Positions 6,970 to 39,278 of a stretch of DNA of 64,000 nt are shown in pieces. A model generated the notes under the pieces. That model was not told the DNA's origin. It was given only the letters and a program-made list of their open reading frames with translations, and made no database searches. This DNA comes from Patescibacteria group bacterium. Its GTDB lineage: Bacteria; Patescibacteriota; Patescibacteriia; SG8-24; DYFX01. The stretch's first letter is position 1, and every line of letters begins with the position of its first letter. Both the position numbers and the translations under genes were made by a program. Where the stretch lies: contig JBBTWH010000003.1 of NCBI GenBank assembly GCA_038062835.1, forward strand, positions 2,666-66,665. The letters run 5' to 3'.

Positions 6970-7031
6970 TTTCGTTCCTGGGGTCTGGATCCCGGCATTC
7001 GCCGGGATGACCTTGAAATAACGCGACAGCG

Positions 7032-7433
7032 TTATTTCAAGGTCACCTTCGCGCCGGCCTCTTCGAGGGTCTTCTTGGCGGCTTCGGCTTCCTCCTTGGA
7101 GACGCCTTCCTTGACGACCTTCGGGGCGCCGTCGGCCAGGTCCTTGGCTTCCTTGAGGCCGAGGCTGGTGAGCGCGCGGATGGCCTTGATGACGCCGATC
7201 TTGTTGGCGCCGGAGTCCGTCAGCTCGACGGTGAAGGAGGTCTGCTCTTCGGCGGCGGCAGCGCCGGCGGCCGGGGCGGCGGCCATGGCCATCATCGGAG
7301 CGGCGGCGGAGACGCCGAACTTCTCTTCGAGGACCTTGACGAGCTCAGCGAGGTCGAGGACGGACAGCTTTTCGATGGACGAGACCAGGGAAGCGAACTT
7401 CTCCGGCACGACCACGTCTTTCATGTCAGACAT
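7032..7433 (-). CDS. rplL: 50S ribosomal protein L7/L12
   Basis: 133 aa; [23 protein letters not shown]...[40 protein letters not shown] is unmistakable bL12. Confidence 0.95.
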
Positions 7434-15957: not shown

Positions 15958-16998
15958 TTATTCGGCGATGATGAGGACCTCGTTGAGGTCGCTGACGGAG
16001 AAACCGGGCCGGCGGCCGCCGCCGATCGCGTAGATGCGGTTCTTCCAGGCGACGGCGGCGTGGCCGTGCCGCGCGCTCAGCATCGGCAGCGCGAGCGTCG
16101 ACCACGACATCTTCTTCGCGTCGAGAACCTCGATTTCGGCGACGTTGCCTTGCTTGGATTCGCCGCCGAGGACGTACGCCGCTCCGCCGAGCGCGGCGGC
16201 GGCGTGTCCGCTGCGCGGAAAGGCCATGTCCGGCGCGGTCTCCCACGCCTGGCGCTTCGGGTCATAGGCTTCGGACGCGCCGAGGCTTTTCGCGACGGAA
16301 CCGCGCCGCCCGCCGAGCGCGAATATCTTGCCTCCCGCCGCGGCGGCGGCGAGATAGGCGCGCTGCGTCGGCATGGACTTGAGGCCGTTCCAGCCGCCGC
16401 GCGCCGGATCGAAATACTCGATGGCGTCGTCGGCGCCGGCTGTCGTGACGCCGCCCATGACGTAGACGGTCCCGTCGAGCGCGGCTGCCGCGGCCGCTCC
16501 GCGGAAGTCATTCAGGCGTCCGAGCTGTTCCCAGGCGTCCTTCTCGGGATCATAGGCGTAGACGTCGTCGATATGGCGCGAAGCCAGGCCCGTCAGGCCG
16601 CCGATGACGTAGATCTTCTTGCCGTCCGAAACGACGGCGGGATGATGGACGGCTTGCGGCAGGCGCGGTATGGAGCGCCAGGCGTCGGCGCCGATGTCGT
16701 AGGCCATCGCGGAGGAGAGCGTGCGGAAAAAACCGTCGATGCCGCCGACGACGTAGATCGTATTGCCCAGGACGGCGGCGCCGAACTCCGCGCGCGGGAA
16801 CGGCATCGGCGCGACCGTCTCCCAGTGCGTGCCGGTCCCGCGTTCGCCGATCGGCGTCGTGGTGGCTGAAGCGTCCTCCGGGAAGAAGTGCGTCACGGCG
16901 GGATCGCGCCGCGCTCTCGCCCAATCCCAGCCTTGGACATAGTGCAGGTACGTCCCGACGCAGACGAGCGCGAACAGGAAGGTGAAAATCTTACGCAT
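15958..16998 (-). CDS. Kelch-repeat beta-propeller protein with N-terminal signal/anchor
   Basis: Repeated GG...YV.GG, W, Y..DP Kelch blades; start trimmed to MRKIFTFLFALVCV. Confidence 0.7.
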   Translation of the reverse strand: MRKIFTFLFALVCVGTYLHYVQGWDWARARRDPAVTHFFPEDASATTTPIGERGTGTHWETVAPMPFPRAEFGAAVLGNTIYVVGGIDGFFRTLSSAMAYDIGADAWRSIPRLPQAVHHPAVVSDGKKIYVIGGLTGLASRHIDDVYAYDPEKDAWEQLGRLNDFRGAAAAAALDGTVYVMGGVTTAGADDAIEYFDPARGGWNGLKSMPTQRAYLAAAAAGGKIFALGGRRGSVAKSLGASEAYDPKRQAWETAPDMAFPRSGHAAAALGGAAYVLGGESKQGNVAEIEVLDAKKMSWSTLALPMLSARHGHAAVAWKNRIYAIGGGRRPGFSVSDLNEVLIIAE

Positions 16999-17452
16999 GC
17001 TCGTCCCAGCGCTTGCGGCCTTTCTTGATGTCGGCCAGGAGGAACTTCGCGCCCGTGTTGTCCTTGGGGTTGAGCTTGAGGAGTTCTTCAAAGCGTCTTT
17101 CCGCCTCCTTGGTGTCGCCGCGCCGATAGGCCGCCAGCGCGAGGCCGTGGAGCGCACGCAGCAGCGAGCGGTCATGCGGCGCGTCCCATTCGACGTGCGT
17201 CGGCATCCTGCCGTTGAAAGCCTTCAAGGCTTCCTTGAGAGCTTTCGCGTGCATCTCCTCGGCGTCGTCCAAGCGCTTCTCGTGGAACGCGATCGTGCCG
17301 AGGCCGTTCAGCGCGTCGGCATGGCGCGGATCGCCGGCGAGCACGCCCAAGAACGCCTCTTCGGCTTCGCTCAACATGCCCGACTGCAGCGCGGCCCAGC
17401 CGGCGGCGAAAAGATGTTCGATCTCTTGCGGAGGAAGTCTTACGTCTTTCAT
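16991..17452 (-). CDS. TPR-repeat protein
   Basis: Multiple TPR-like helices (AEEAFLGVLAGDPRHADALNGLGTIAF...); 8-bp overlap with the Kelch gene. Confidence 0.6.
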   Translation of the reverse strand: MKDVRLPPQEIEHLFAAGWAALQSGMLSEAEEAFLGVLAGDPRHADALNGLGTIAFHEKRLDDAEEMHAKALKEALKAFNGRMPTHVEWDAPHDRSLLRALHGLALAAYRRGDTKEAERRFEELLKLNPKDNTGAKFLLADIKKGRKRWDEHA

Positions 17453-17459
17453 ATCAAGT

Positions 17460-17756
17460 CTACCGAGCTTCACCCGATATTCCCCCTTCGAGTCCTTCGC
17501 ACTTCTGGACGCACATCAGGATGCAGGCCTCGGCGTCGGGCGGGCAGGCGGAGGCGCATTCGTTCCAGGTGCCGCCGGCTTCCTCGCATGAAGATCGGTC
17601 CGTGACGGGTTCCTCCGACGGAAGTTCGGCGTTCGCCGCGTCAGGGATGCCCTCGACCTGGTCCAGAGCGTTGGTATAGAACCACGCTCCGACCGCCAGT
17701 CCGGCGAGCGCGAGCGCGATGGCGAGGAGATGCGTGATGGGCGGTCGTTCTTTCAT
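17460..17756 (-). CDS. Small secreted/anchored Cys-rich protein (8 Cys)
   Basis: 98 aa; N-terminal hydrophobic helix; CEEAGGTWNECASACPPDAEACILMCVQKCEG. Confidence 0.45.
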   Translation of the reverse strand: MKERPPITHLLAIALALAGLAVGAWFYTNALDQVEGIPDAANAELPSEEPVTDRSSCEEAGGTWNECASACPPDAEACILMCVQKCEGLEGGISGEAR

Positions 17757-17757
17757 A

Positions 17758-18099
17758 TCACTGGAGGCATTTCTTGACCGCGGCTTCTTCCTGCGTGGTG
17801 TAGTTCCCGGACAGCACGGCCGAGACGCGGTCGCCCGAGATCGATGCGCTGAGGCACAGCATCTGCCGGGGCGTAAGCTCCTTGGCCTTTTCCTTCAGCT
17901 GCGCCGGCGTCATGCCCTTCAACGACTCGACATCGATCGATGGCGCGGAAGTGGCCGCTTTCGGAAACGTCTCCGCTGAAGAAGCGGCAGCGGGCCCGTC
18001 GATCCACGCGAAACTGCGTCCCGTCAGACGGTATCCGGCGTAGACGCTGGCTGAAAACCACAGGAGCGCGAGGAAAAAGGCGCCGGCTTTCATAATCAC
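17758..18099 (-). CDS. Small secreted protein
   Basis: 113 aa, signal peptide MIMKAGAFFLALLWFSASVYA. Confidence 0.45.
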   Translation of the reverse strand: MIMKAGAFFLALLWFSASVYAGYRLTGRSFAWIDGPAAASSAETFPKAATSAPSIDVESLKGMTPAQLKEKAKELTPRQMLCLSASISGDRVSAVLSGNYTTQEEAAVKKCLQ

Positions 18100-18323
18100 T
18101 TCGCGTACTGGTTCATGAGCGTCTCAAACGCCTGGGCCTGGATGTTCTCCAGGAGTTTCGGCAGAGGATTCGCGAGCAAGACCCATAGGACCCCGCCGAG
18201 CATGAGGCCGTAGAAGGCCAGCTGGACCATCAGCTTCAGGACGGTCAGGACCTTGATGAGCGTGTCGAGGCCGCTGGCGGCCGGGTTGGGATTTTCATTG
18301 AGCATATGCCGGTATCGTACCAT
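18096..18323 (-). CDS. Small membrane protein (alternative start MLNENP at about 18305)
   Basis: 75 aa with one TM helix. Confidence 0.4.
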   Translation of the reverse strand: MVRYRHMLNENPNPAASGLDTLIKVLTVLKLMVQLAFYGLMLGGVLWVLLANPLPKLLENIQAQAFETLMNQYAK

Positions 18324-18331
18324 GGACGAGG

Positions 18332-18351
18332 CCGCCCTTTACAGGGGCGGA
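18332..18351. repeat. Mini hairpin of the GC hairpin family (CCGCCCCT-ttac-AGGGGCGG) in the divergent promoter region
   Basis: 8-bp inverted repeat nested in a larger imperfect stem (CGTATCGT/ACGATACG). Confidence 0.4.
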
Positions 18352-18364
18352 CGATACGGATAGC

Positions 18365-18553
18365 ATGAGTCAAAACAATCATATGGACGCCTGCTGCAAA
18401 CACGACGACAAGGACGCGAAGAAGGACGGAGCCGAAAAGGGATGCTGCGAAGCCTGCCCGGACAAGGGCTGCGACGGCTGCGACTGCTCGAAGCCGGAAA
18501 ACGCTAAGGGCGGCTGCATGGGCGGCGCGTGCGCGTGCGAAAACGGCCGCTAA
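18365..18553 (+). CDS. Metallothionein-like cysteine-rich micro-protein (62 aa, 14 Cys)
   Basis: MSQNNHMDACCKHDD...GCCEACPDKGCDGCDCSKPENAKGGCMGGACACENGR; CC, CxC and CxxC clusters; own intrinsic terminator. Confidence 0.6.
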   Translation: MSQNNHMDACCKHDDKDAKKDGAEKGCCEACPDKGCDGCDCSKPENAKGGCMGGACACENGR

Positions 18554-18570
18554 GGCGGCCGTTTTCTTTT
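18541..18570 (+). terminator. Rho-independent terminator
   Basis: ACGGCCGC-taa-GGCGGCCGT then TTTTCTTTT; TAA stop in the loop. Confidence 0.75.
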
Positions 18571-18624
18571 CGCGTGCCGGACCACGGCATTCGTGGTAAA
18601 ATCAGCAGGCAATCGTGCCTGTGT

Positions 18625-21372
18625 ATGAGCGAATTCCGCCTCTGGGTCCATAGGAAGGTCGCGCGCCTCGACGAGACGCGCGAACGAAGGTTCGTCGCGC
18701 TCGCGTCGGCCCTGATTTTCGCCGTCCTATCGCTCGGCCCGCAGGCGCTCCGCATCGTCGACGCCGCCATCGACTCTCCCGATATCAGCATCGATGAGCT
18801 CGGTGCGGAGCCGCTCCTCAATCCGGTGCGGTTCAAGGCGACGGTCCTGAACGCCATCGTCAGCCAGGTACAATTCCTGGTGCTGGACGCATCCGGCGCG
18901 AGTACGTCCGTTCCTGGCCACCACGCCGACACCGTAGGCCTGTCTCTTTGGGAATCCGATGAATTCATGGGCGAGCCTGGACGGTCTTACACCGTCAAGG
19001 TTCGTTACGCTTCTTCGACGACGCAGGGGCAGTTCATCGATTCGTCGCAGTCCGTCGCGTTCAGCATTTTCGATCCCGCGCAGGGCGCCGGTACCGGAAC
19101 AGGGACGACTGGTTCGACCGGCACTTCCGGAACGTCCGGCACGTCCGCGAACGCGTCGGTGGAGATTTTCCAGCTCGTCGCCTGGCCAGGCACGGAAACC
19201 AGGATCGAAGCGCGCGGCATGCACGCCGGCTTCACCGCGACTTCCGCCGCCTATCGCGTCCAATCGGTCACGGGACTCGCCTTCCTCGGCGAATTCCCGG
19301 CTGCGCAGGAAGCGGGCGGCGCCTGGCATGCCCTATTCCCGATACCGGGCGGCGCGCTCTATAAGGCGACGCTCATCGTGCGCGAAGGGACTCAGGACCA
19401 TGCATCCATCCCTGCGGAAGTCGCCGTGCCGGTCGAGGACGCGACAGGGACCCAAACGACGACGCCTGCCCCGACGGCCCCGGCGCCTGTCGTTTCCTTG
19501 CTTCTCCCGAATGCCGGCGCGTCGCTCATGAGCCCTGTCGCGCTGGCGGCGCGCGTCGAGAACGCCACTGCGACATCGGTGGGGTTCGAGGTGCTTGACC
19601 CGGCCGGCGTCTCTCGCGTCGTGCTCGGCGCCGCCGTCGCCGACGGACGCTGGACGGCGATGTTCGTCGGGAATCCGGGACAATATAGCTTCGGCGTCCG
19701 TGCCGTGCTCTCCGACGGCGCCGTCATCCCTCCGACTGACTTCCGACCATTCAGCATCGCCGCTCTACCGACCGAAAATGCGACGACGACCGGAACCGTC
19801 CCGCTTCCCGACCCGACCGCGCCCGAACCCTCCCCGGCCACGACGACGCCCGTCGTCACGCCGGCCGTCGAGATCTTCTCGCCGGACCCGTCCGCCGTGC
19901 CGTTCGCCGGACCGGTGCCGATTTCCGTCCGTGTCCGCAACGGCCTGCCGGAGAGGGTCGTCGCCGTCGTCATCGGACCGAACGACCGCGAGACGATCGT
20001 CGTCGCTTCTAAATCCGCGACGGGTGATTTCTGGACGGCTCTTTTCGACGGACCTGACGGCGAATACCGTTTCCGCGTCCGCGCCTCCGTCGCGGGCGAG
20101 GATTACTTCGCGCCTGAACGCCGTTTCGCGGTGAAGCGTCCCGCCGCGACGTCCGCGCCCGTACCGGATACGGCTGGACCTGGGCCTGTCGCGAACATGC
20201 CGATCCTGCCGTCCACTATCCTCAAGGACGGACCGCCGCCCATGACGGCGATCGTACCTGTCGACGAAAACCGGGGCGGTACGTCGAGCGCGCCGACGAG
20301 GCCGGACGTCGGCGGCGAGTCGATTCCTGAAGCGCTCCGTCTCGAATGCCGCGATGGCGGCATCCTGCCGGCCCGCTGCGTGGATTGGCTCAAGGCCAAG
20401 CATCAGAGCCGCGAGTGCGCGGAAGCCGGCGCCGTCACGAGGGAAGCGTGCCTCGCTGTCCTTGGCCGGCTGAACGTCGCCGTCGACGAGACGAACGTCT
20501 TCGGCATGGCCACCGATCGCGACATACTGGACGCGGTCGAAGCCGCCCGCGAGGTCGCCGGCAAGGCCATGAAGCTGGCCGAGATGCCGCCCGCGATCGG
20601 GCGCCTCCTGGCTTTCGAACCGCGACCGGAAGAACGCTGGAGGGTGATGGCGTCCCGGGACGATTCGCCTTCCTTGCTCATCCTCGACAACGACGGCGAC
20701 GGCCTGCCTGACGACGCCGAGCGGAGGTTCGGCACCGACCCGGACGCCGCCGACACCGACGGCGACGGCTTCAGCGACGGACAGGAAATCAGGAAGGGCT
20801 ACAATCCGCTTGGCCCCGGCGCGCTGGACAGGCCGCTGCGCGGCCTCGACAAGGCGACGCTCGAAAACCGCGAGATCGCGCAGCCGCGCGGCTCTTCCGC
20901 GCCCGTCGACCCATCCTTCACCATCGCCGCCGAAGCGGCAGCGCCGGCGTCCGAAGACGAAGTCATCCGCCTCTCCGGCAAAGCCGCCCCGAACTCGGTG
21001 GTCAGCATCTTCGTCTACAGCTATCTGCCGATCGTCGTCACCACCACGACCGACGAGAACGGCGACTGGACCTACGACTTCGGAAGCAAGCTGGCCGAAG
21101 GACGCCACGAGGCCTACGTCTCGATCAACGACGACACCGGCAAGCTCGTCGCCTCCTCCTCGCCGCTCGCTTTCTTCGTCAAGGAAGCGAAGGCCGTCTC
21201 GGAGGAAGACTTCCTCCGCCCCGACATCAACGTCGAGGAGGCTCCTACGACGTTCTCGCGCTGGTTCGTCTACGGCGGCATCGGGCTCGTCGCGCTCGCG
21301 GCCATCCTCGTCATCGCCATCGTCCTGCAGACGCGCAAGTCGCCGCTGAAGGGAACCGGAGACGAGCCATGA
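18625..21372 (+). CDS. Large cell-surface protein with Ig-like repeats, thrombospondin-type-3-like Ca-binding repeats and C-terminal TM anchor
   Basis: Start trimmed to MSEFRLWV; DNDGDGLPDDAERRFGTDPDAADTDGDGFSDGQEIRKGYNP repeats; C-terminal WFVYGGIGLVALAAILVIAIVLQTRK. Confidence 0.65.
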   Translation: MSEFRLWVHRKVARLDETRERRFVALASALIFAVLSLGPQALRIVDAAIDSPDISIDELGAEPLLNPVRFKATVLNAIVSQVQFLVLDASGASTSVPGHHADTVGLSLWESDEFMGEPGRSYTVKVRYASSTTQGQFIDSSQSVAFSIFDPAQGAGTGTGTTGSTGTSGTSGTSANASVEIFQLVAWPGTETRIEARGMHAGFTATSAAYRVQSVTGLAFLGEFPAAQEAGGAWHALFPIPGGALYKATLIVREGTQDHASIPAEVAVPVEDATGTQTTTPAPTAPAPVVSLLLPNAGASLMSPVALAARVENATATSVGFEVLDPAGVSRVVLGAAVADGRWTAMFVGNPGQYSFGVRAVLSDGAVIPPTDFRPFSIAALPTENATTTGTVPLPDPTAPEPSPATTTPVVTPAVEIFSPDPSAVPFAGPVPISVRVRNGLPERVVAVVIGPNDRETIVVASKSATGDFWTALFDGPDGEYRFRVRASVAGEDYFAPERRFAVKRPAATSAPVPDTAGPGPVANMPILPSTILKDGPPPMTAIVPVDENRGGTSSAPTRPDVGGESIPEALRLECRDGGILPARCVDWLKAKHQSRECAEAGAVTREACLAVLGRLNVAVDETNVFGMATDRDILDAVEAAREVAGKAMKLAEMPPAIGRLLAFEPRPEERWRVMASRDDSPSLLILDNDGDGLPDDAERRFGTDPDAADTDGDGFSDGQEIRKGYNPLGPGALDRPLRGLDKATLENREIAQPRGSSAPVDPSFTIAAEAAAPASEDEVIRLSGKAAPNSVVSIFVYSYLPIVVTTTTDENGDWTYDFGSKLAEGRHEAYVSINDDTGKLVASSSPLAFFVKEAKAVSEEDFLRPDINVEEAPTTFSRWFVYGGIGLVALAAILVIAIVLQTRKSPLKGTGDEP

Positions 21373-22745
21373 TCGCGTTCAAGAAATACTGGCAGATCAT
21401 CTACGCGATCGTCCTGATCGTGCTGGTGCCGATCCTGATCGTCGTCAACACGCTCTACGCCGTCCGCGGCTTCAAGGCCGATACCGACGTCGCCCTCCAG
21501 CGTCAGGCGCTGATCGTCGGCCGCCTCTTCAACGTCGCGGCGCGCGAGTCGCTGGACGACGCCACGAAGCTCCAGGCGCTCATCGACGACGTCGCCGGGC
21601 AGATCGGCGAAGTCCGTGCCCTCGAAGTCCTCGTCCCCGACGGCGGTGCGCTGCCGAGCGAGCGCTTCCGCATCGTCGCGGGGCTGGACGCCTCCGCCGT
21701 CGGCAAGTCTTCGAGCCAGATCCAGAACGTCCTGGCATGGACGCAGGACGAGGCTTTCGCTTTCCTGACGCGCTCCGACGATCCCTCGTCGAACGACGAG
21801 GACGCGCCGCGCGCTTCCGGCAAGCGCTACTGGGCCGTCATCATGCCGATCGTCGACGCCGCCGGACGGAAGCAGGCGCTCGTCTACATGAAACTTTCGC
21901 TTGAGACGCTCGACGCGCGCGTGGCCTCGACGCTCTTCAGAGCGTATCTCCTGCTCTCGCTGACGGTGCTCGTGACCGTGCTCATCCTCGCCTCCAACAC
22001 GCGCCTCTTCCAATACGCGCTTCTCTTCCGGAAGTTGAAGGAGGTCGACAAGATGAAGGACGAGTTCATCTCGATGGCTTCGCACGAGCTGATGACGCCG
22101 ATCTCGGCCATCAAGGGCTTCCTTTCTCTCTTCCTCGAGAACGCCTTCGGACCGTTCCAGGGCGTGGCGCGCGAGAAGATGTCGACGCTCTACACGCTTT
22201 CGGAGCGTCTGGGCGATCTCGTCGAGGACCTGCTGAACGTCTCGCGCATCGAGCAGGGACGCCTCTCGATCGATCCGGCGCCGTCGCAGCCTGAAGAGCT
22301 GGTACGCGGCGTGATGGAGGAGCTCGAGAGCAACGCCAAGAACAAAGGCCTCGCCTTCTCTTTCGACGCGCCCGCCGCCCCGCTGCCGAAGATCTCCGTC
22401 GATCCGGCGCGCGTGAAGCAGGTGCTCGTCAACGTCATCGGCAACGCCATCAAATACACCCCGAAGGGTTCCATCACGGTCTCGGCCTATCTCGAGGAGG
22501 GCAAGGTCAAGATCAAGTGCACCGACACGGGTCTCGGCATGTCGCCGCAGGCGCGCGAACGGCTGTTCCAGAAGTTCTATCGCATCGCCACCGACGCCAC
22601 GCGAAGCATTCCTGGCACGGGACTCGGGCTCTGGATCACCAAGCAGCTCGTGGAGCTCCAGCACGGACAGATCTACGTCGATTCGATCGAAGGCGTCGGC
22701 ACGCAGATGTCGATCGTCTTCCCGGCCGTGCCCGACAAGGCATGA
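21369..22745 (+). CDS. Sensor histidine kinase (no cognate response regulator nearby)
   Basis: N-terminal TM, H-box HELMTPISAIKGF, HATPase_c (GLGLWITKQLVELQHGQIYVDS); ATGA overlap with upstream gene. Confidence 0.85.
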   Translation: MIAFKKYWQIIYAIVLIVLVPILIVVNTLYAVRGFKADTDVALQRQALIVGRLFNVAARESLDDATKLQALIDDVAGQIGEVRALEVLVPDGGALPSERFRIVAGLDASAVGKSSSQIQNVLAWTQDEAFAFLTRSDDPSSNDEDAPRASGKRYWAVIMPIVDAAGRKQALVYMKLSLETLDARVASTLFRAYLLLSLTVLVTVLILASNTRLFQYALLFRKLKEVDKMKDEFISMASHELMTPISAIKGFLSLFLENAFGPFQGVAREKMSTLYTLSERLGDLVEDLLNVSRIEQGRLSIDPAPSQPEELVRGVMEELESNAKNKGLAFSFDAPAAPLPKISVDPARVKQVLVNVIGNAIKYTPKGSITVSAYLEEGKVKIKCTDTGLGMSPQARERLFQKFYRIATDATRSIPGTGLGLWITKQLVELQHGQIYVDSIEGVGTQMSIVFPAVPDKA

Positions 22746-35874: not shown

Positions 35875-35880
35875 CTTCCT

Positions 35881-35919
35881 ATGGTAGAATCAGGTCATGA
35901 AGCCGCTTCATTCTACCAT
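35881..35919. promoter_or_regulatory. 10-bp inverted repeat ATGGTAGAAT/ATTCTACCAT bracketing the start codon of gene 35897 in the 22-bp divergent gap
   Basis: Perfect arms, 19-bp spacer, between divergent starts 35874(-) and 35897(+). Confidence 0.3.
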
Positions 35920-38023
35920 TTTGGCCTCGTTCGGCGGAGTGCTGGCCGCCTTGGGCATGGCTTCCGCGGCCTTCGCTTCCCTGAAACCGCTGGGCGGCCT
36001 GCTTTTCTTCGCCGGAACGGCCGTCCTCGTCGGACGCATGGCCTTCCCGGAGGAGCGGCGTCCGATCCGATGGACGTTCGGGCTTCTCGGCGCGTCGGCC
36101 CTGACGGCCGTCTTCGGGACCGTCGTCTACTACGCCTACAAGCTCGATACGATGGGACTTTCCTGGCTCCTGATCTCGATGCCGTGGGTCGTCTTCGCGT
36201 TCACGCCGCTCGCGAAGGACAAGCGCGAGCGCGCGGCCGAAGCGGAGATCAAGGTCGAGAAGACCGCGCCGGAGGATTCCCTTTCGGCCGTGCTTCTCGC
36301 GCTGACGGTCCTCTCCGACGCCGCCGCGCTCCGCTGGCTCGCCGGCGCGCGCACCGACGAGGCGATCCGTACGCCGTGGGAGGCGGTCCCGCCGATCTTC
36401 TTCCTCTGGATCGGCATCGCGACCGTCTGCCTCGCGGCCCTCGCGTACCGCAAGCGCTATCCGCATCTCGCCCTCGGCGCCGCGTCCCTGCATCTCTTCA
36501 CCTTGCTCGCCCCCGCCGCCTTGGTCTACGCGGTCGGATACGGCTTCGACCCGTTCGTCCACCAAGCCGCCGAACGCCTGGTCTCCGCCGTCGGCGAAAT
36601 CACGCCGAAGACGCCGTACTACGTCGGGCAGTACGCGCTCGTGACCGTCATCGCGAAGCTGTTCCGCATCGGCGCCGAAAGCGTCGACCGATACCTCCTC
36701 CCCGTCATGACGGCCGTCTTCCTGCCGGCCGCCGCAGCTTGGCTCCTGCGGCGCGGCTTCGGCGTCGCGCGCGGACTGGCGCTCGTCGGCGCCATGGGCG
36801 TGTTCCTCCTGCCGCTCGGCTCGTTCGTCTCGACGACCCCGCAGGGCGTCTCCAACCTGTTCTTCCTGCTGACCGTCATCGTCGGCGCCGCCTGGCTGCA
36901 CGCGCACCGTCCGCCGCTCGGCTTCGTGCTCGCGCTCGCCGCAGCATCCGCCGCCGCGCATCCTCTGGCCGGCATCCCGGCGCTCTTCGCGGCGGCGCTG
37001 CTCATGACCGTGAAGCTGCGCCACGACGGACTCGCGCTCCCGCGCATCTCCAAAGCGATCGTCTTCGGCATCCTGCTGGGCGCGGCGGCGCTGGCGGTCC
37101 CCTTCGCCTTCTCGCTCCGTGAAGGGACGGGCAGCCTGCCCATCGAAGCGGCTTTCAAAAAACCGATCGCGACGCTCGTCGAGAACGTGCCCTTCGAAGG
37201 GCCGGGACTCGAGACGCGCTATCGTCCCCTCCTCGACTTCGCGGAGTTCATCGACCGCAACTACGACCTCCTCTGGCTCATCATGGCCGGCGCGGGAGCA
37301 TGGCTCCTCGGCCGGCAAAAGCCTTTCCGCCGCTCGGCGCTCGCGCTCGGCGGCCTTTCCTTGGCGCTCCTGGCGGGTTCGTCCGTCCTGAGGACAGGCT
37401 TCACGTTCGAGGACGTCATCGGCTACGAGCAGGGCAACTACGCCGCCCGGCTGTATGAAGCGGGGCTCTTGGCCGCTTCGCCGCTCGTCCTGGCCGCTTT
37501 CGCCTGGTGGTGGCGCGCGCTCACGAAGACCGACGCCGCCGTGCGCTTCCTGATGGCGCTCGTCTTCGCCGCGGCCGTCGCCGCGCTGGCCTACGGCGCG
37601 TTCCCCCGCCTCGACGACTACCGCTGGAGCCGCGGGTATTCGACCTCGGCGCACGACGTCGAAGCCGTCCGCTGGATCGACACGCACGCCATCGGCCCGT
37701 ACGTCGTGCTGGCGAACCAGTCCGTCTCCGCCGCCGCGCTCCGCGAATACGGGTTCCGCACCTACTACGGCGACCAGTTCTATTATTCGATCCCGACCGG
37801 CGCGCCGCTGTATCAGAAATATCTCGAGATGGTCTACGACGCGCCCTCTCGCGCGACGATGGACGCCGCCATGCGCGATATCGGCGTGCGCCAAGCGTAC
37901 TTCGTCATCAACGACTACTGGACCGACGCGGGGCGCATCATCGACGCCGCGAAAAAAACCGCCGACGACTGGCAGGAGGTCGGCGACGGCAAGGTCTTCA
38001 TCTTCCGGTATACGCTCCGGTAG
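35897..38023 (+). CDS. Large polytopic membrane protein (putative GT-C-like glycosyltransferase/polymerase)
   Basis: 708 aa, at least 14 predicted TM helices; only plus-strand gene inside a minus-strand glycosylation cluster; antisense ORF is Arg/Gly junk. Confidence 0.5.
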   Translation: MKPLHSTILASFGGVLAALGMASAAFASLKPLGGLLFFAGTAVLVGRMAFPEERRPIRWTFGLLGASALTAVFGTVVYYAYKLDTMGLSWLLISMPWVVFAFTPLAKDKRERAAEAEIKVEKTAPEDSLSAVLLALTVLSDAAALRWLAGARTDEAIRTPWEAVPPIFFLWIGIATVCLAALAYRKRYPHLALGAASLHLFTLLAPAALVYAVGYGFDPFVHQAAERLVSAVGEITPKTPYYVGQYALVTVIAKLFRIGAESVDRYLLPVMTAVFLPAAAAWLLRRGFGVARGLALVGAMGVFLLPLGSFVSTTPQGVSNLFFLLTVIVGAAWLHAHRPPLGFVLALAAASAAAHPLAGIPALFAAALLMTVKLRHDGLALPRISKAIVFGILLGAAALAVPFAFSLREGTGSLPIEAAFKKPIATLVENVPFEGPGLETRYRPLLDFAEFIDRNYDLLWLIMAGAGAWLLGRQKPFRRSALALGGLSLALLAGSSVLRTGFTFEDVIGYEQGNYAARLYEAGLLAASPLVLAAFAWWWRALTKTDAAVRFLMALVFAAAVAALAYGAFPRLDDYRWSRGYSTSAHDVEAVRWIDTHAIGPYVVLANQSVSAAALREYGFRTYYGDQFYYSIPTGAPLYQKYLEMVYDAPSRATMDAAMRDIGVRQAYFVINDYWTDAGRIIDAAKKTADDWQEVGDGKVFIFRYTLR

Positions 38024-39278
38024 GTTTCGCGCGATACCTGATCGGTACCACGGGGCCCCGGTGTGCGAGCGCGGGGTCTTTTTCGTCATAGAGCGCGACC
38101 AGGCGCTCTGCGTGCCGGTCTTCCGTCAGGAGCTCGGCGGAGCGGCGGGCGGCCTTGGATCGGCCGGGCCAGGCACCCTTCTCGTCGCAGGCGCGCTTCA
38201 GCGCGGCGACGAGGGCGGCGACGTTCCCCGCCTCGAAGACGAGGCCGTTCTCGCCGTGACGCACCAGCTCGGCGGCGCCTCCGATGTCGGCCACGATCAC
38301 GGGCACGCCGTAGGCGAACGATTCGACGATGACGGTCGGGGCGTTCTCGTAGCAGAGCGAGGGCACGACGGCGTAGTCCGCCTTCGAGAACATCTCCATG
38401 AACTGCGTGGGGCTCTTCTTGCCGTAGAAGGCGACGCGGACATCCTTGCCGGCGGCCCGTCTGGCCTCGTCGGCGGCCGCGCCGGATCCGACCACGTCGA
38501 GACGGATCTTGGGACGGTCCTTGCTCAGGCGGCGGAACGCCTCGACGAGGAGCAGGATACCCTTGTGCGTCTCGATCTGGCCGAGGAACAGGAAGCGCGT
38601 CTCGACGGACGGCGCGTGCGGGGCGGGACGGACGCGAGGCGCGGGGTTCGGCAGGAAGACGGCCTGCGAGGCCGGGAAGAACCCGCGGACGCGGTAGAAA
38701 TCCAGCAGGAACTTCGACGGGGAGATGACGGCGTCGGGCGAACCCAACGCGCGGCGCGCGGAACGCGCGAACAGCGCCGAGACCGGGTCGGTCACGCCGA
38801 GACCGCTCTCCCTGCCCTTGATGATGAGGCCGGACGGCGCCGCGAGCTGGACGTCATGCAGGGTGTGCACGTGGCGGATGCCGAGCGAACGGATGACGCG
38901 CGGGACGGAGAGGCCGATGCCTTTGAGGCTGTGCGTGTGTACGACGTCGGGACGTTCTTTCTTCAAGATCGCCTCGACGCATTCAGCGGCGTGCGGGTTC
39001 CAGGCGTCCCATGCGTGCCAGAGCAGGCGCGACGGCGCGGAGTGGCGGCCGATGTCGCCGTAGAAGAAAAGGTTGAGCGGATGGAACCGCCAGACGCGGA
39101 TGCCGCCTTCGTCCGTCATCCGCGGAGCGACGCTCCCGTCGTCGCGCACCGGTTCGGCGGTGATGACGCAGACGTCGTGGCCGATGGCCTTGAGCGCCCT
39201 GGCTTCAGTCTCGACGACGCGCTCCGCTCCGCCGCGGGCGTAGGGAGGATATAAATTCGAAATCAGGCAGATGCGCAT
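37998..39278 (-). CDS. Family 4 glycosyltransferase
   Basis: MRICLISNLYPPYARGGAERVV GT4 N-domain, C-terminal nucleotide-sugar-binding domain; start trimmed. Confidence 0.8.
   Translation of the reverse strand: MRICLISNLYPPYARGGAERVVETEARALKAIGHDVCVITAEPVRDDGSVAPRMTDEGGIRVWRFHPLNLFFYGDIGRHSAPSRLLWHAWDAWNPHAAECVEAILKKERPDVVHTHSLKGIGLSVPRVIRSLGIRHVHTLHDVQLAAPSGLIIKGRESGLGVTDPVSALFARSARRALGSPDAVISPSKFLLDFYRVRGFFPASQAVFLPNPAPRVRPAPHAPSVETRFLFLGQIETHKGILLLVEAFRRLSKDRPKIRLDVVGSGAAADEARRAAGKDVRVAFYGKKSPTQFMEMFSKADYAVVPSLCYENAPTVIVESFAYGVPVIVADIGGAAELVRHGENGLVFEAGNVAALVAALKRACDEKGAWPGRSKAARRSAELLTEDRHAERLVALYDEKDPALAHRGPVVPIRYRAKPTGAYTGR

Follow-up and report, generated by a model that had tools for sequence, protein, structure and literature searches.

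A 64,000-nucleotide stretch of DNA from a Patescibacteria group bacterium, here called the window, carries on its forward strand a short gene for a cysteine-rich (Cys-rich) protein of 56 residues. We put at about one half the chance that this protein is a cytoplasmic, intrinsically disordered, metallothionein-like mini-protein of a single Paceibacter-type clade of groundwater Patescibacteria. As evidenced below, the gene is genuine, conserved and under purifying selection, and its family is rare and phyletically narrow. The window (65% G+C) matches a Hainich groundwater metagenome contig (Hain_H41) of a Patescibacteria metagenome-assembled genome (MAG), and also GCA_964357585.1; its gene annotation covers up to ~28.5 kb.

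The cysteine-rich gene and its relatives

The open reading frame (ORF) at 18365..18553 (+; translation MSQNNHMDACCKHDD...ACACENGR) stands alone among the ORFs of the 64-kb window in reaching at least 6 Cys together with at least 8% Cys; the long ORFs have a mean Cys content of 0.7%. An earlier note, made from the letters of the sequence, had taken the whole ORF as a gene for 62 residues with 14 Cys. The ORF is confirmed, but its length is not: comparison with ~20 orthologues places the true start almost certainly at ATG 18383, because the relatives all begin with MDACC or MEECC and the upstream ATG is out of frame in one of them (L009). The start of the longest ORF, ATG 18365, falls inside the −10 hexamer of the predicted promoter (TAGCATG). 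The resulting protein of 56 residues contains 11 Cys (19.6%) rather than 14. Exactly 12 Cys were counted in 10 of 10 relatives, all full-length, which span 49–63 residues with 19–23% Cys; the difference between 11 and 12 is a GCC to GGC change in the copy of the window.

The layout of the protein is the same throughout the family: an N-terminal M-D/E-x-C-C is followed by a variable linker of 10–20 residues rich in Lys, Asp and Glu, and then by a conserved core of 37 residues, GCCEACPDKGCDGCDCSKPEN..G(C)CMGGxCxC(E)N(G)R. For the family as a whole the core pattern reads GCC-x2-CP-DK-GC-x-GC-x-C-SKPEN-x2-3-G(C)C-x2-4-C-x-C-x-N-(G)-R. Across 11 sequences C4C5, C21C22-x2-C25, C30-x2-C33-x-C35, (C44)C45 and C50-x-C52 are invariant or nearly so, and the arrangement of Cys in CC, CxC and CxxC arrays, already recognized in the earlier note, is thereby borne out. 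Several other residues are as conserved as the Cys themselves, namely G20, P26, G32, the S-K-P-E-N motif, N54 and R56. Phe, Trp and Tyr are absent from all 11 sequences, and none has more than one His.

A hydropathy scan found no hydrophobic segment or signal peptide in the protein (maximum over 17-residue Kyte–Doolittle windows, KD17, −0.24; grand average of hydropathy, GRAVY, −0.92). Because it has no hydrophobic segment, the protein should be cytoplasmic. AlphaFold2, run with an alignment of the 11 sequences, gave no confident fold (predicted local distance difference test, pLDDT, 54), as expected if folding depends on metal.

To describe the extent of the family, we counted orthologues in several collections. 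There are ~20 distinct ones, all on Patescibacteria-type contigs and all at the same locus. A search of 5.8 billion proteins returned 7 clusters, an exhaustive hidden Markov model (HMM) search of 1.84 billion cluster representatives returned 4 representatives, and the gene was found in 8 of 185,579 GTDB species genomes and on 6 contigs from a set of 241 million metagenome records. Such low counts mark a rare and phyletically narrow family. The records are labelled Patescibacteria, Minisyncoccota or Candidatus Paceibacter, with a few under "uncultured Gammaproteobacteria". It should be noted that the latter loci (L009, L013 and L014; CAYNUS01, CAYYII01 and CAYFZV01) are Patescibacteria-type loci under the title "uncultured Gammaproteobacteria bacterium", and the taxonomy of the MAGs behind them is probably mislabelled.

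Selection on the protein is evident from several comparisons. The ratio of nonsynonymous to synonymous substitution (dN/dS, Nei–Gojobori) is mostly 0.15–0.45, with dS up to ~1.4; synonymous TGC/TGT changes are seen at Cys codons; and indels keep the frame and are limited to two places, the charged linker and the tail of the core at its C-terminal end. Identity among relatives is 56–80% for the Cys-rich protein and 49–70% for its small neighbours, so that it is at least as conserved as these. The absence or frameshifting of the ORF in close relatives, which the earlier note had named as what would speak against the gene, was not seen: the ORF is intact at every orthologous locus found. When the locus was approached through the neighbouring gene for a 111-residue protein (19 clusters), the Cys-rich ORF was found to adjoin even its most distant homologue, at L019.

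This L019 copy (1-166, −) is the most distant variant of the family; it has lost two core Cys (DCQGKCADGKCEGETC) and has kept SKPEN and GCCM. At L020 (3545-3736, −) the Cys-rich ORF was overlooked by the automatic gene caller, which called a 42-residue ORF in another frame instead. The gene of the window also contains a 46-residue antisense ORF (18379-18519, −), which results from the TGC/GCA codon periodicity; a coding role for it is not supported.

Likeness to metallothioneins and competing readings

Classically, metallothioneins lack aromatic residues and are poor in His. They are intracellular, low-complexity, disordered proteins of fewer than 100 residues with ~15–30% Cys, which have evolved more than once and, it is thought, repeatedly de novo (PMC7826182). 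In all the broad features that we tested, namely size, percentage of Cys, CC/CxC/CxxC motifs, absence of aromatics, scarcity of His and absence of an export signal, the Cys-rich protein agrees with this class.

Sequence comparison placed the protein in no described family, bacterial or eukaryotic, and in this respect the novelty suggested by the earlier note was upheld. Pfam, searched at E ≤ 10 with 11 family members, gave no match, metallothionein families included, and no NCBIfam, PHROG or PADLOC model matched the protein. A profile search of Protein Data Bank (PDB) sequences found no solved metallothionein and returned only a chance match to cellobiose dehydrogenase (E 1.8). In the literature on metallothioneins and Cys-rich proteins of Patescibacteria or Parcubacteria we found no description of the family. 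The direct comparison with SmtA, MymT and eukaryotic metallothioneins that had been proposed as a check revealed no significant similarity: hhalign gave probabilities of 0.3% for SmtA, 0.4% for MymT and 2.6% for human MT2A. Smith–Waterman scores against SmtA, MymT, MT2A and two fungal metallothioneins fell within the shuffled range except for one marginal comparison with MymT (z against shuffles 0.4–2.1 for MymT and −0.1 to 0.9 for MT2A).

The SmtA/BmtA family (PF02069), to which Synechococcus SmtA belongs, resembles the Cys-rich protein in that its members are small (~55 residues), Cys-rich proteins of the bacterial cytoplasm; smtA, too, has a divergently transcribed neighbour, and YCSEACAD in SmtA and GCCEACPD in the Cys-rich protein form a short local look-alike. 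SmtA-type proteins, however, have His ligands, conserved aromatics and a zinc-finger-like fold, with a Cys9His2 cluster in SmtA, whereas the Cys-rich family has 12 Cys, at most one, unconserved His, and no aromatics. His-rich members of this type, and the Cys9His cluster of the Pseudomonas PflQ2 metallothionein, have been described (PMC7387436). In cyanobacterial operons smtA is divergent from the gene for an SmtB/ArsR-type repressor (PMC7387436), whereas the divergent gene at the Cys-rich locus encodes a 69-residue membrane protein, not SmtB, and no helix-turn-helix regulator lies within 10 kb. MymT, the Cu(I) metallothionein of Mycobacterium tuberculosis, is likewise a Cys-rich, lineage-restricted orphan of ~53 residues that was found by inspection and not by homology, but its Cys are fewer, it contains several His as well as aromatic and other hydrophobic residues, and no counterpart to its RicR copper regulon was seen at the Cys-rich locus.

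The best look-alike is the vertebrate alpha-domain (M4Cys11), where KK-S-CC-S-C-CP-V-GC...GC-I-C can be set beside EK-G-CC-E-A-CP-DK-GC-D-GC-D-C; both have 11–12 Cys in CC, CxC and CxxC motifs mixed with Lys, Gly, Ser and Asp, and neither has aromatics. The eukaryote-like pattern had earlier been read as a distinguishing sign, but as a sign of relationship it fails: the likeness (CC-x2-CP-x-GC) is compositional or convergent and not evidence of homology, because the hhalign probability is 2.6% and the scores are no better than those of shuffled sequence. The Cys-rich protein lies outside every described metallothionein family; it is unrelated in sequence to SmtA/BmtA, MymT and the eukaryotic metallothioneins, and probably of independent origin.

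If the protein is metallothionein-like, its 12 Cys thiolates, 2 in the N-terminal CC arm and 10 in the C-terminal core (11 in total in the copy of the window), would wrap soft metal ions in a metal–thiolate cluster. The chemistry of the M4Cys11 alpha-domain and of Cu-thioneins is the basis for an estimate of the load, which by this analogy would be ~4 Zn(II) or Cd(II), or 6–8 Cu(I). In this way the protein would keep cytosolic metal buffered or sequestered and, as a secondary role, might perhaps scavenge oxidants; metal binding, stoichiometry and physiological role are all what we infer from such parallels. A broader proposal can be made more tentatively: that the family is a further independent bacterial metallothionein family, the first in Patescibacteria, which originated in the Paceibacter-type clade and converged on the vertebrate CC-x2-CP-x2-GC-x-GC-x-C motif, the invariant SKPEN hinting at a hand-off partner and not at plain buffering.

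Several observations weigh against a metallothionein. We found no metal regulator (ArsR/SmtB, CsoR or MerR), metal pump or chaperone, and likewise no radical-SAM enzyme or peptide exporter, in the 10 kb to each side of the gene, whether in the window or in the relatives; a context so free of metal genes contrasts with that of smtA–smtB (PMC7387436). The CPDKG and SKPEN motifs and the terminal N(G)R are strongly conserved, beyond the needs of simple chelation, and such conserved non-Cys residues could point to a specific partner or fold; the codons of N(G)R are also constrained by the terminator stem. The loss of two core Cys in the distant L019 variant counts on the same side, and composition alone cannot tell a metallothionein from a small structural-zinc or iron–sulfur (Fe–S) protein.

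That last possibility is the alternative that we take most seriously, unlikely as we consider it: a defined mini-fold whose 12 Cys would be arranged in an Fe–S cluster or in as many as three Cys4 sites, and which would serve not as a metal buffer but by way of a partner, be it as regulator, adaptor or subunit. The same conserved motifs and the Cys count fixed at 12 argue for it, as does a degree of conservation at least equal to that of the neighbours. Yet no zinc-ribbon, zinc-knuckle, Fer4 or other Pfam or NCBIfam model was matched (Pfam to E ≤ 10), nor any PDB sequence; the ferredoxin motif CxxCxxCxxxCP and hydrophobic core residues are absent, and AlphaFold produced no fold. Adjacent CC pairs, moreover, are typical of thiolate clusters and not of Cys4 knuckles.

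A precursor of a ribosomally synthesized and post-translationally modified peptide (RiPP), such as one of the SCIFF/ranthipeptide type, appears improbable, as does a disulfide-rich export peptide tied to the divergent envelope operon. As in SCIFF and other Cys-rich RiPP precursors, a small ORF combines a variable, charged N-terminal part with a conserved, Cys-rich C-terminal core, and it adjoins genes for membrane and secreted proteins. The family differs from these precursors, however, in matching no precursor model, those of NCBIfam included, and in having no maturase gene nearby: neither a radical-SAM/SPASM enzyme nor a cyclase, a peptidase–ATP-binding cassette (ABC) exporter or another maturase occurs within 10 kb at the loci examined (the window, L001 and L002). 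The protein also has no signal peptide and no double-Gly leader, and the two N-terminal Cys are themselves conserved.

Only two bacterial metallothioneins, SmtA and MymT, have had their biological function studied (PMC7387436). The Cys-rich family is an unrecognized sequence family within a polyphyletic functional class and a candidate further lineage of bacterial metallothioneins, the first in Patescibacteria. If this is true, even minimal episymbiotic bacteria with ~1-Mb genomes invest in a dedicated thiolate protein, and the 56-residue protein would be a clean, short test case for the convergent evolution of Cys motifs; should the protein prove not to buffer metal, the strong conservation of its non-Cys motif marks it as a candidate for a small-protein function not yet described. 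The family would in addition contribute sequences that Pfam and NCBIfam do not recognize and gene callers sometimes overlook. Practical consequences are modest, given the rarity of the family and its restriction to organisms that are not in culture.

Transcription signals

According to the signals around it (table 1), the Cys-rich gene would be transcribed on its own from a sigma-70-like promoter and end at an intrinsic terminator that overlaps its stop codon. The promoter is the sole promoter-like match in 17000–19000, and all relatives retain these hexamers, or TTGCAT, TAGGAT and TAGCCT in their place, at a spacing of 17–18 nt, from which we infer that it works as a promoter. The predicted 5′ untranslated region (UTR) is ~10 nt long and has no Shine–Dalgarno sequence. 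In this short 5′ UTR (18367-18382 and its equivalents in L001–L027) a conserved GCGAACCA-like motif is present.

Table 1. Features at the locus of the Cys-rich gene in the window
Feature	Position	Strand	Basis or detail
Kelch-repeat protein, after the TPR gene	15958..16998	−	Domain match
160-residue TPR protein, next in the divergent operon	16991..17473	−	Domain match
98-residue protein, N-terminal transmembrane anchor and extracytoplasmic 6-Cys domain C-x9-C-x3-C-x6-C-x3-C-x3-C	17460..17756	−	Alignment, Cys count
111-residue secreted protein, Sec-type signal peptide (MKAGAFFLALLWFSASVYA), 2 conserved Cys	17758..18093	−	Signal and alignment
69-residue small membrane protein, internal transmembrane helix, no Cys, first gene of the divergent operon	18096..18305	−	Orthologue starts, hydropathy
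Inverted repeat CCGCCC-TTTACAG-GGGCGG, 6–8 bp, around the −35 hexamer	18332..18350		Occurs once in the window
Predicted sigma-70-like promoter of the Cys-rich gene	18338..18366	+	−35 TTTACA 18338-18343, 17-nt spacer, −10 TAGCAT 18361-18366
Coding sequence of the Cys-rich protein, 56 residues	18383..18553	+	Start by comparison with ~20 orthologues
Predicted intrinsic terminator	18539..18573	+	12-bp perfect stem GAAAACGGCCGC / GCGGCCGTTTTC, loop TAAG, then T-tract
Extended −10 element TGGTAAAAT, predicted own promoter of the downstream surface-protein gene	18594..18602	+	TGGTAnAAT motif
915-residue surface protein, TSP3_bac repeats, Big_13 domain, C-terminal transmembrane anchor	18625..21372	+	Domain match
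Histidine kinase, overlapping the surface-protein gene	21369..22745	+	Domain match

An inverted repeat surrounds the −35 hexamer. It had been described as a hairpin of a repeat family, which does not hold: it occurs once in the window, its stability is not above that of shuffles (z = −1.4), and comparable repeats are seen only at L019, which has its own inverted repeat, and weakly at L020, being absent at the other loci. It could be a lineage-specific operator or chance. No Rfam family was recognized anywhere in the window.

The terminator justifies its earlier description as a textbook one. Its arms (18539-18550 and 18555-18566) form a perfect 12-bp stem, the 5′ arm codes for the last four residues, ENGR, the TAAG loop holds the stop codon, and TTTTCTTTTC comes next; the fold has −27.5 kcal/mol and z = −5.0 against shuffles. 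A hairpin is found at the same place in all relatives despite a codon indel, as ..NGR* with AACGGCCGC/GCGGCCGTT or as ..NR* with GAACCGG/CCGGTTC: in genes that end in NR rather than NGR, the two arms are shorter in step. This conservation was judged from folds of each locus, since the RNAalifold covariation table was uninformative, MAFFT having misaligned the two hairpin types at the codon indel. A G+C-rich stem-loop and a T-tract directly after the gene, both conserved, are thus in place, and termination itself is predicted from them.

Beyond the terminator, and ahead of the surface-protein gene, all relatives keep a TGGTAnAAT element. In the window 0.11 copies of the motif would be expected and 3 are present, at 18594-18602 (+), 35882-35890 (+) and 35910-35918 (−). 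By these signals the Cys-rich gene is a monocistronic unit, because it has its own promoter and terminator, followed by a separate extended −10 element for the downstream gene.

The overlap of terminator and coding sequence allows another reading, in which the ORF would be a leader with Cys codons serving as a transcription attenuator: a ribosome at the stop codon would melt the 5′ arm of the terminator and permit read-through into the surface-protein and histidine-kinase genes, and stalling at Cys codons would lead to termination. The position of the 5′ arm in the last four codons and of the stop codon in the loop, conserved at all loci, and the presence of the same downstream gene at most of them are in its favour. 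We nevertheless hold it to be very improbable: purifying selection acts on the amino acid sequence and not on the Cys codons alone, the ORF, with its 50–60 codons, is rather long to be a leader peptide, an alternative pairing that could serve as antiterminator is not apparent, and the conserved TGGTAnAAT between terminator and downstream gene represents a separate promoter. Terminators that overlap stop codons are, furthermore, common in compact genomes. That the ORF is spurious, a product of GC-rich sequence from which no protein is made, might be suspected from its small size, its lack of annotation and the oversight of the gene caller at L020, but this is effectively refuted by the comparative data: an intact frame in ~20 divergent orthologues, dN/dS well below 1, a Cys pattern that does not vary, indels whose lengths are all multiples of three and which stay within the linker and the C-terminal tail of the core, and a conserved promoter and terminator.

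Neighbouring genes and other features of the window

Three small genes lie on the opposite strand beside the Cys-rich gene, as previously described, but of the signal-peptide proteins that they were said to encode only two have a signal or anchor. The third, taken before as a signal-peptide protein of 75 residues, has an internal transmembrane helix and is really 69 residues long: its ORF reaches 18323 (75 residues), and the orthologues start at Met 18305. The sequence TGGTACGAT, a putative promoter element, is found at 18322..18314 (−), and the mRNA of the divergent operon is probably leaderless because this lies only ~8 nt before ATG 18305. The 111-residue protein forms an orphan family of 19 clusters, all Patescibacteria-type, with a phyletic breadth about that of the Cys-rich gene.

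The 98-residue protein, to which 8 Cys had been ascribed, has 6. Direct alignment revealed its homology to proteins of ~222 residues (L002 6733-7401, L003 1084-1761, L001 4753-5424 and L020 4330-4998), which consist of a transmembrane anchor, the 6-Cys domain and a GerMN domain (PF10646); it corresponds to their N-terminal 40%. In the lineage of the window a clean deletion has removed the whole GerMN domain, and the TPR gene now overlaps the end of the gene for the 98-residue protein.

The TPR and Kelch genes are syntenic in most of the longer relatives; there is no Kelch gene at L019, and the counterpart at L001 has no Kelch annotation. On the other side, the pair of surface protein and histidine kinase is kept in most relatives, and the kinase has no adjacent response regulator. 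At L001 the position of the surface protein is occupied by a gene for 302 residues with a similar N-terminus, and no histidine kinase follows.

The proposal that the Cys-rich gene and its small neighbours form a functional cluster of metal or redox micro-proteins did not find support: by their sequence features, the neighbours in the divergent operon are envelope proteins. Synteny around the Cys-rich gene is close to constant, but this does not show a functional link, because the loci all come from one narrow clade with a conserved order of the whole locus.

Elsewhere in the window, a look-up of the ORF at 35879-38089 gave no match on record. The longest perfect hairpin of the window is a 17-bp inverted repeat at 7008-7045 (TGACCTTGAAATAACGC / GCGTTATTTCAAGGTCA, 4-nt loop), which is AT-richer than its surroundings.

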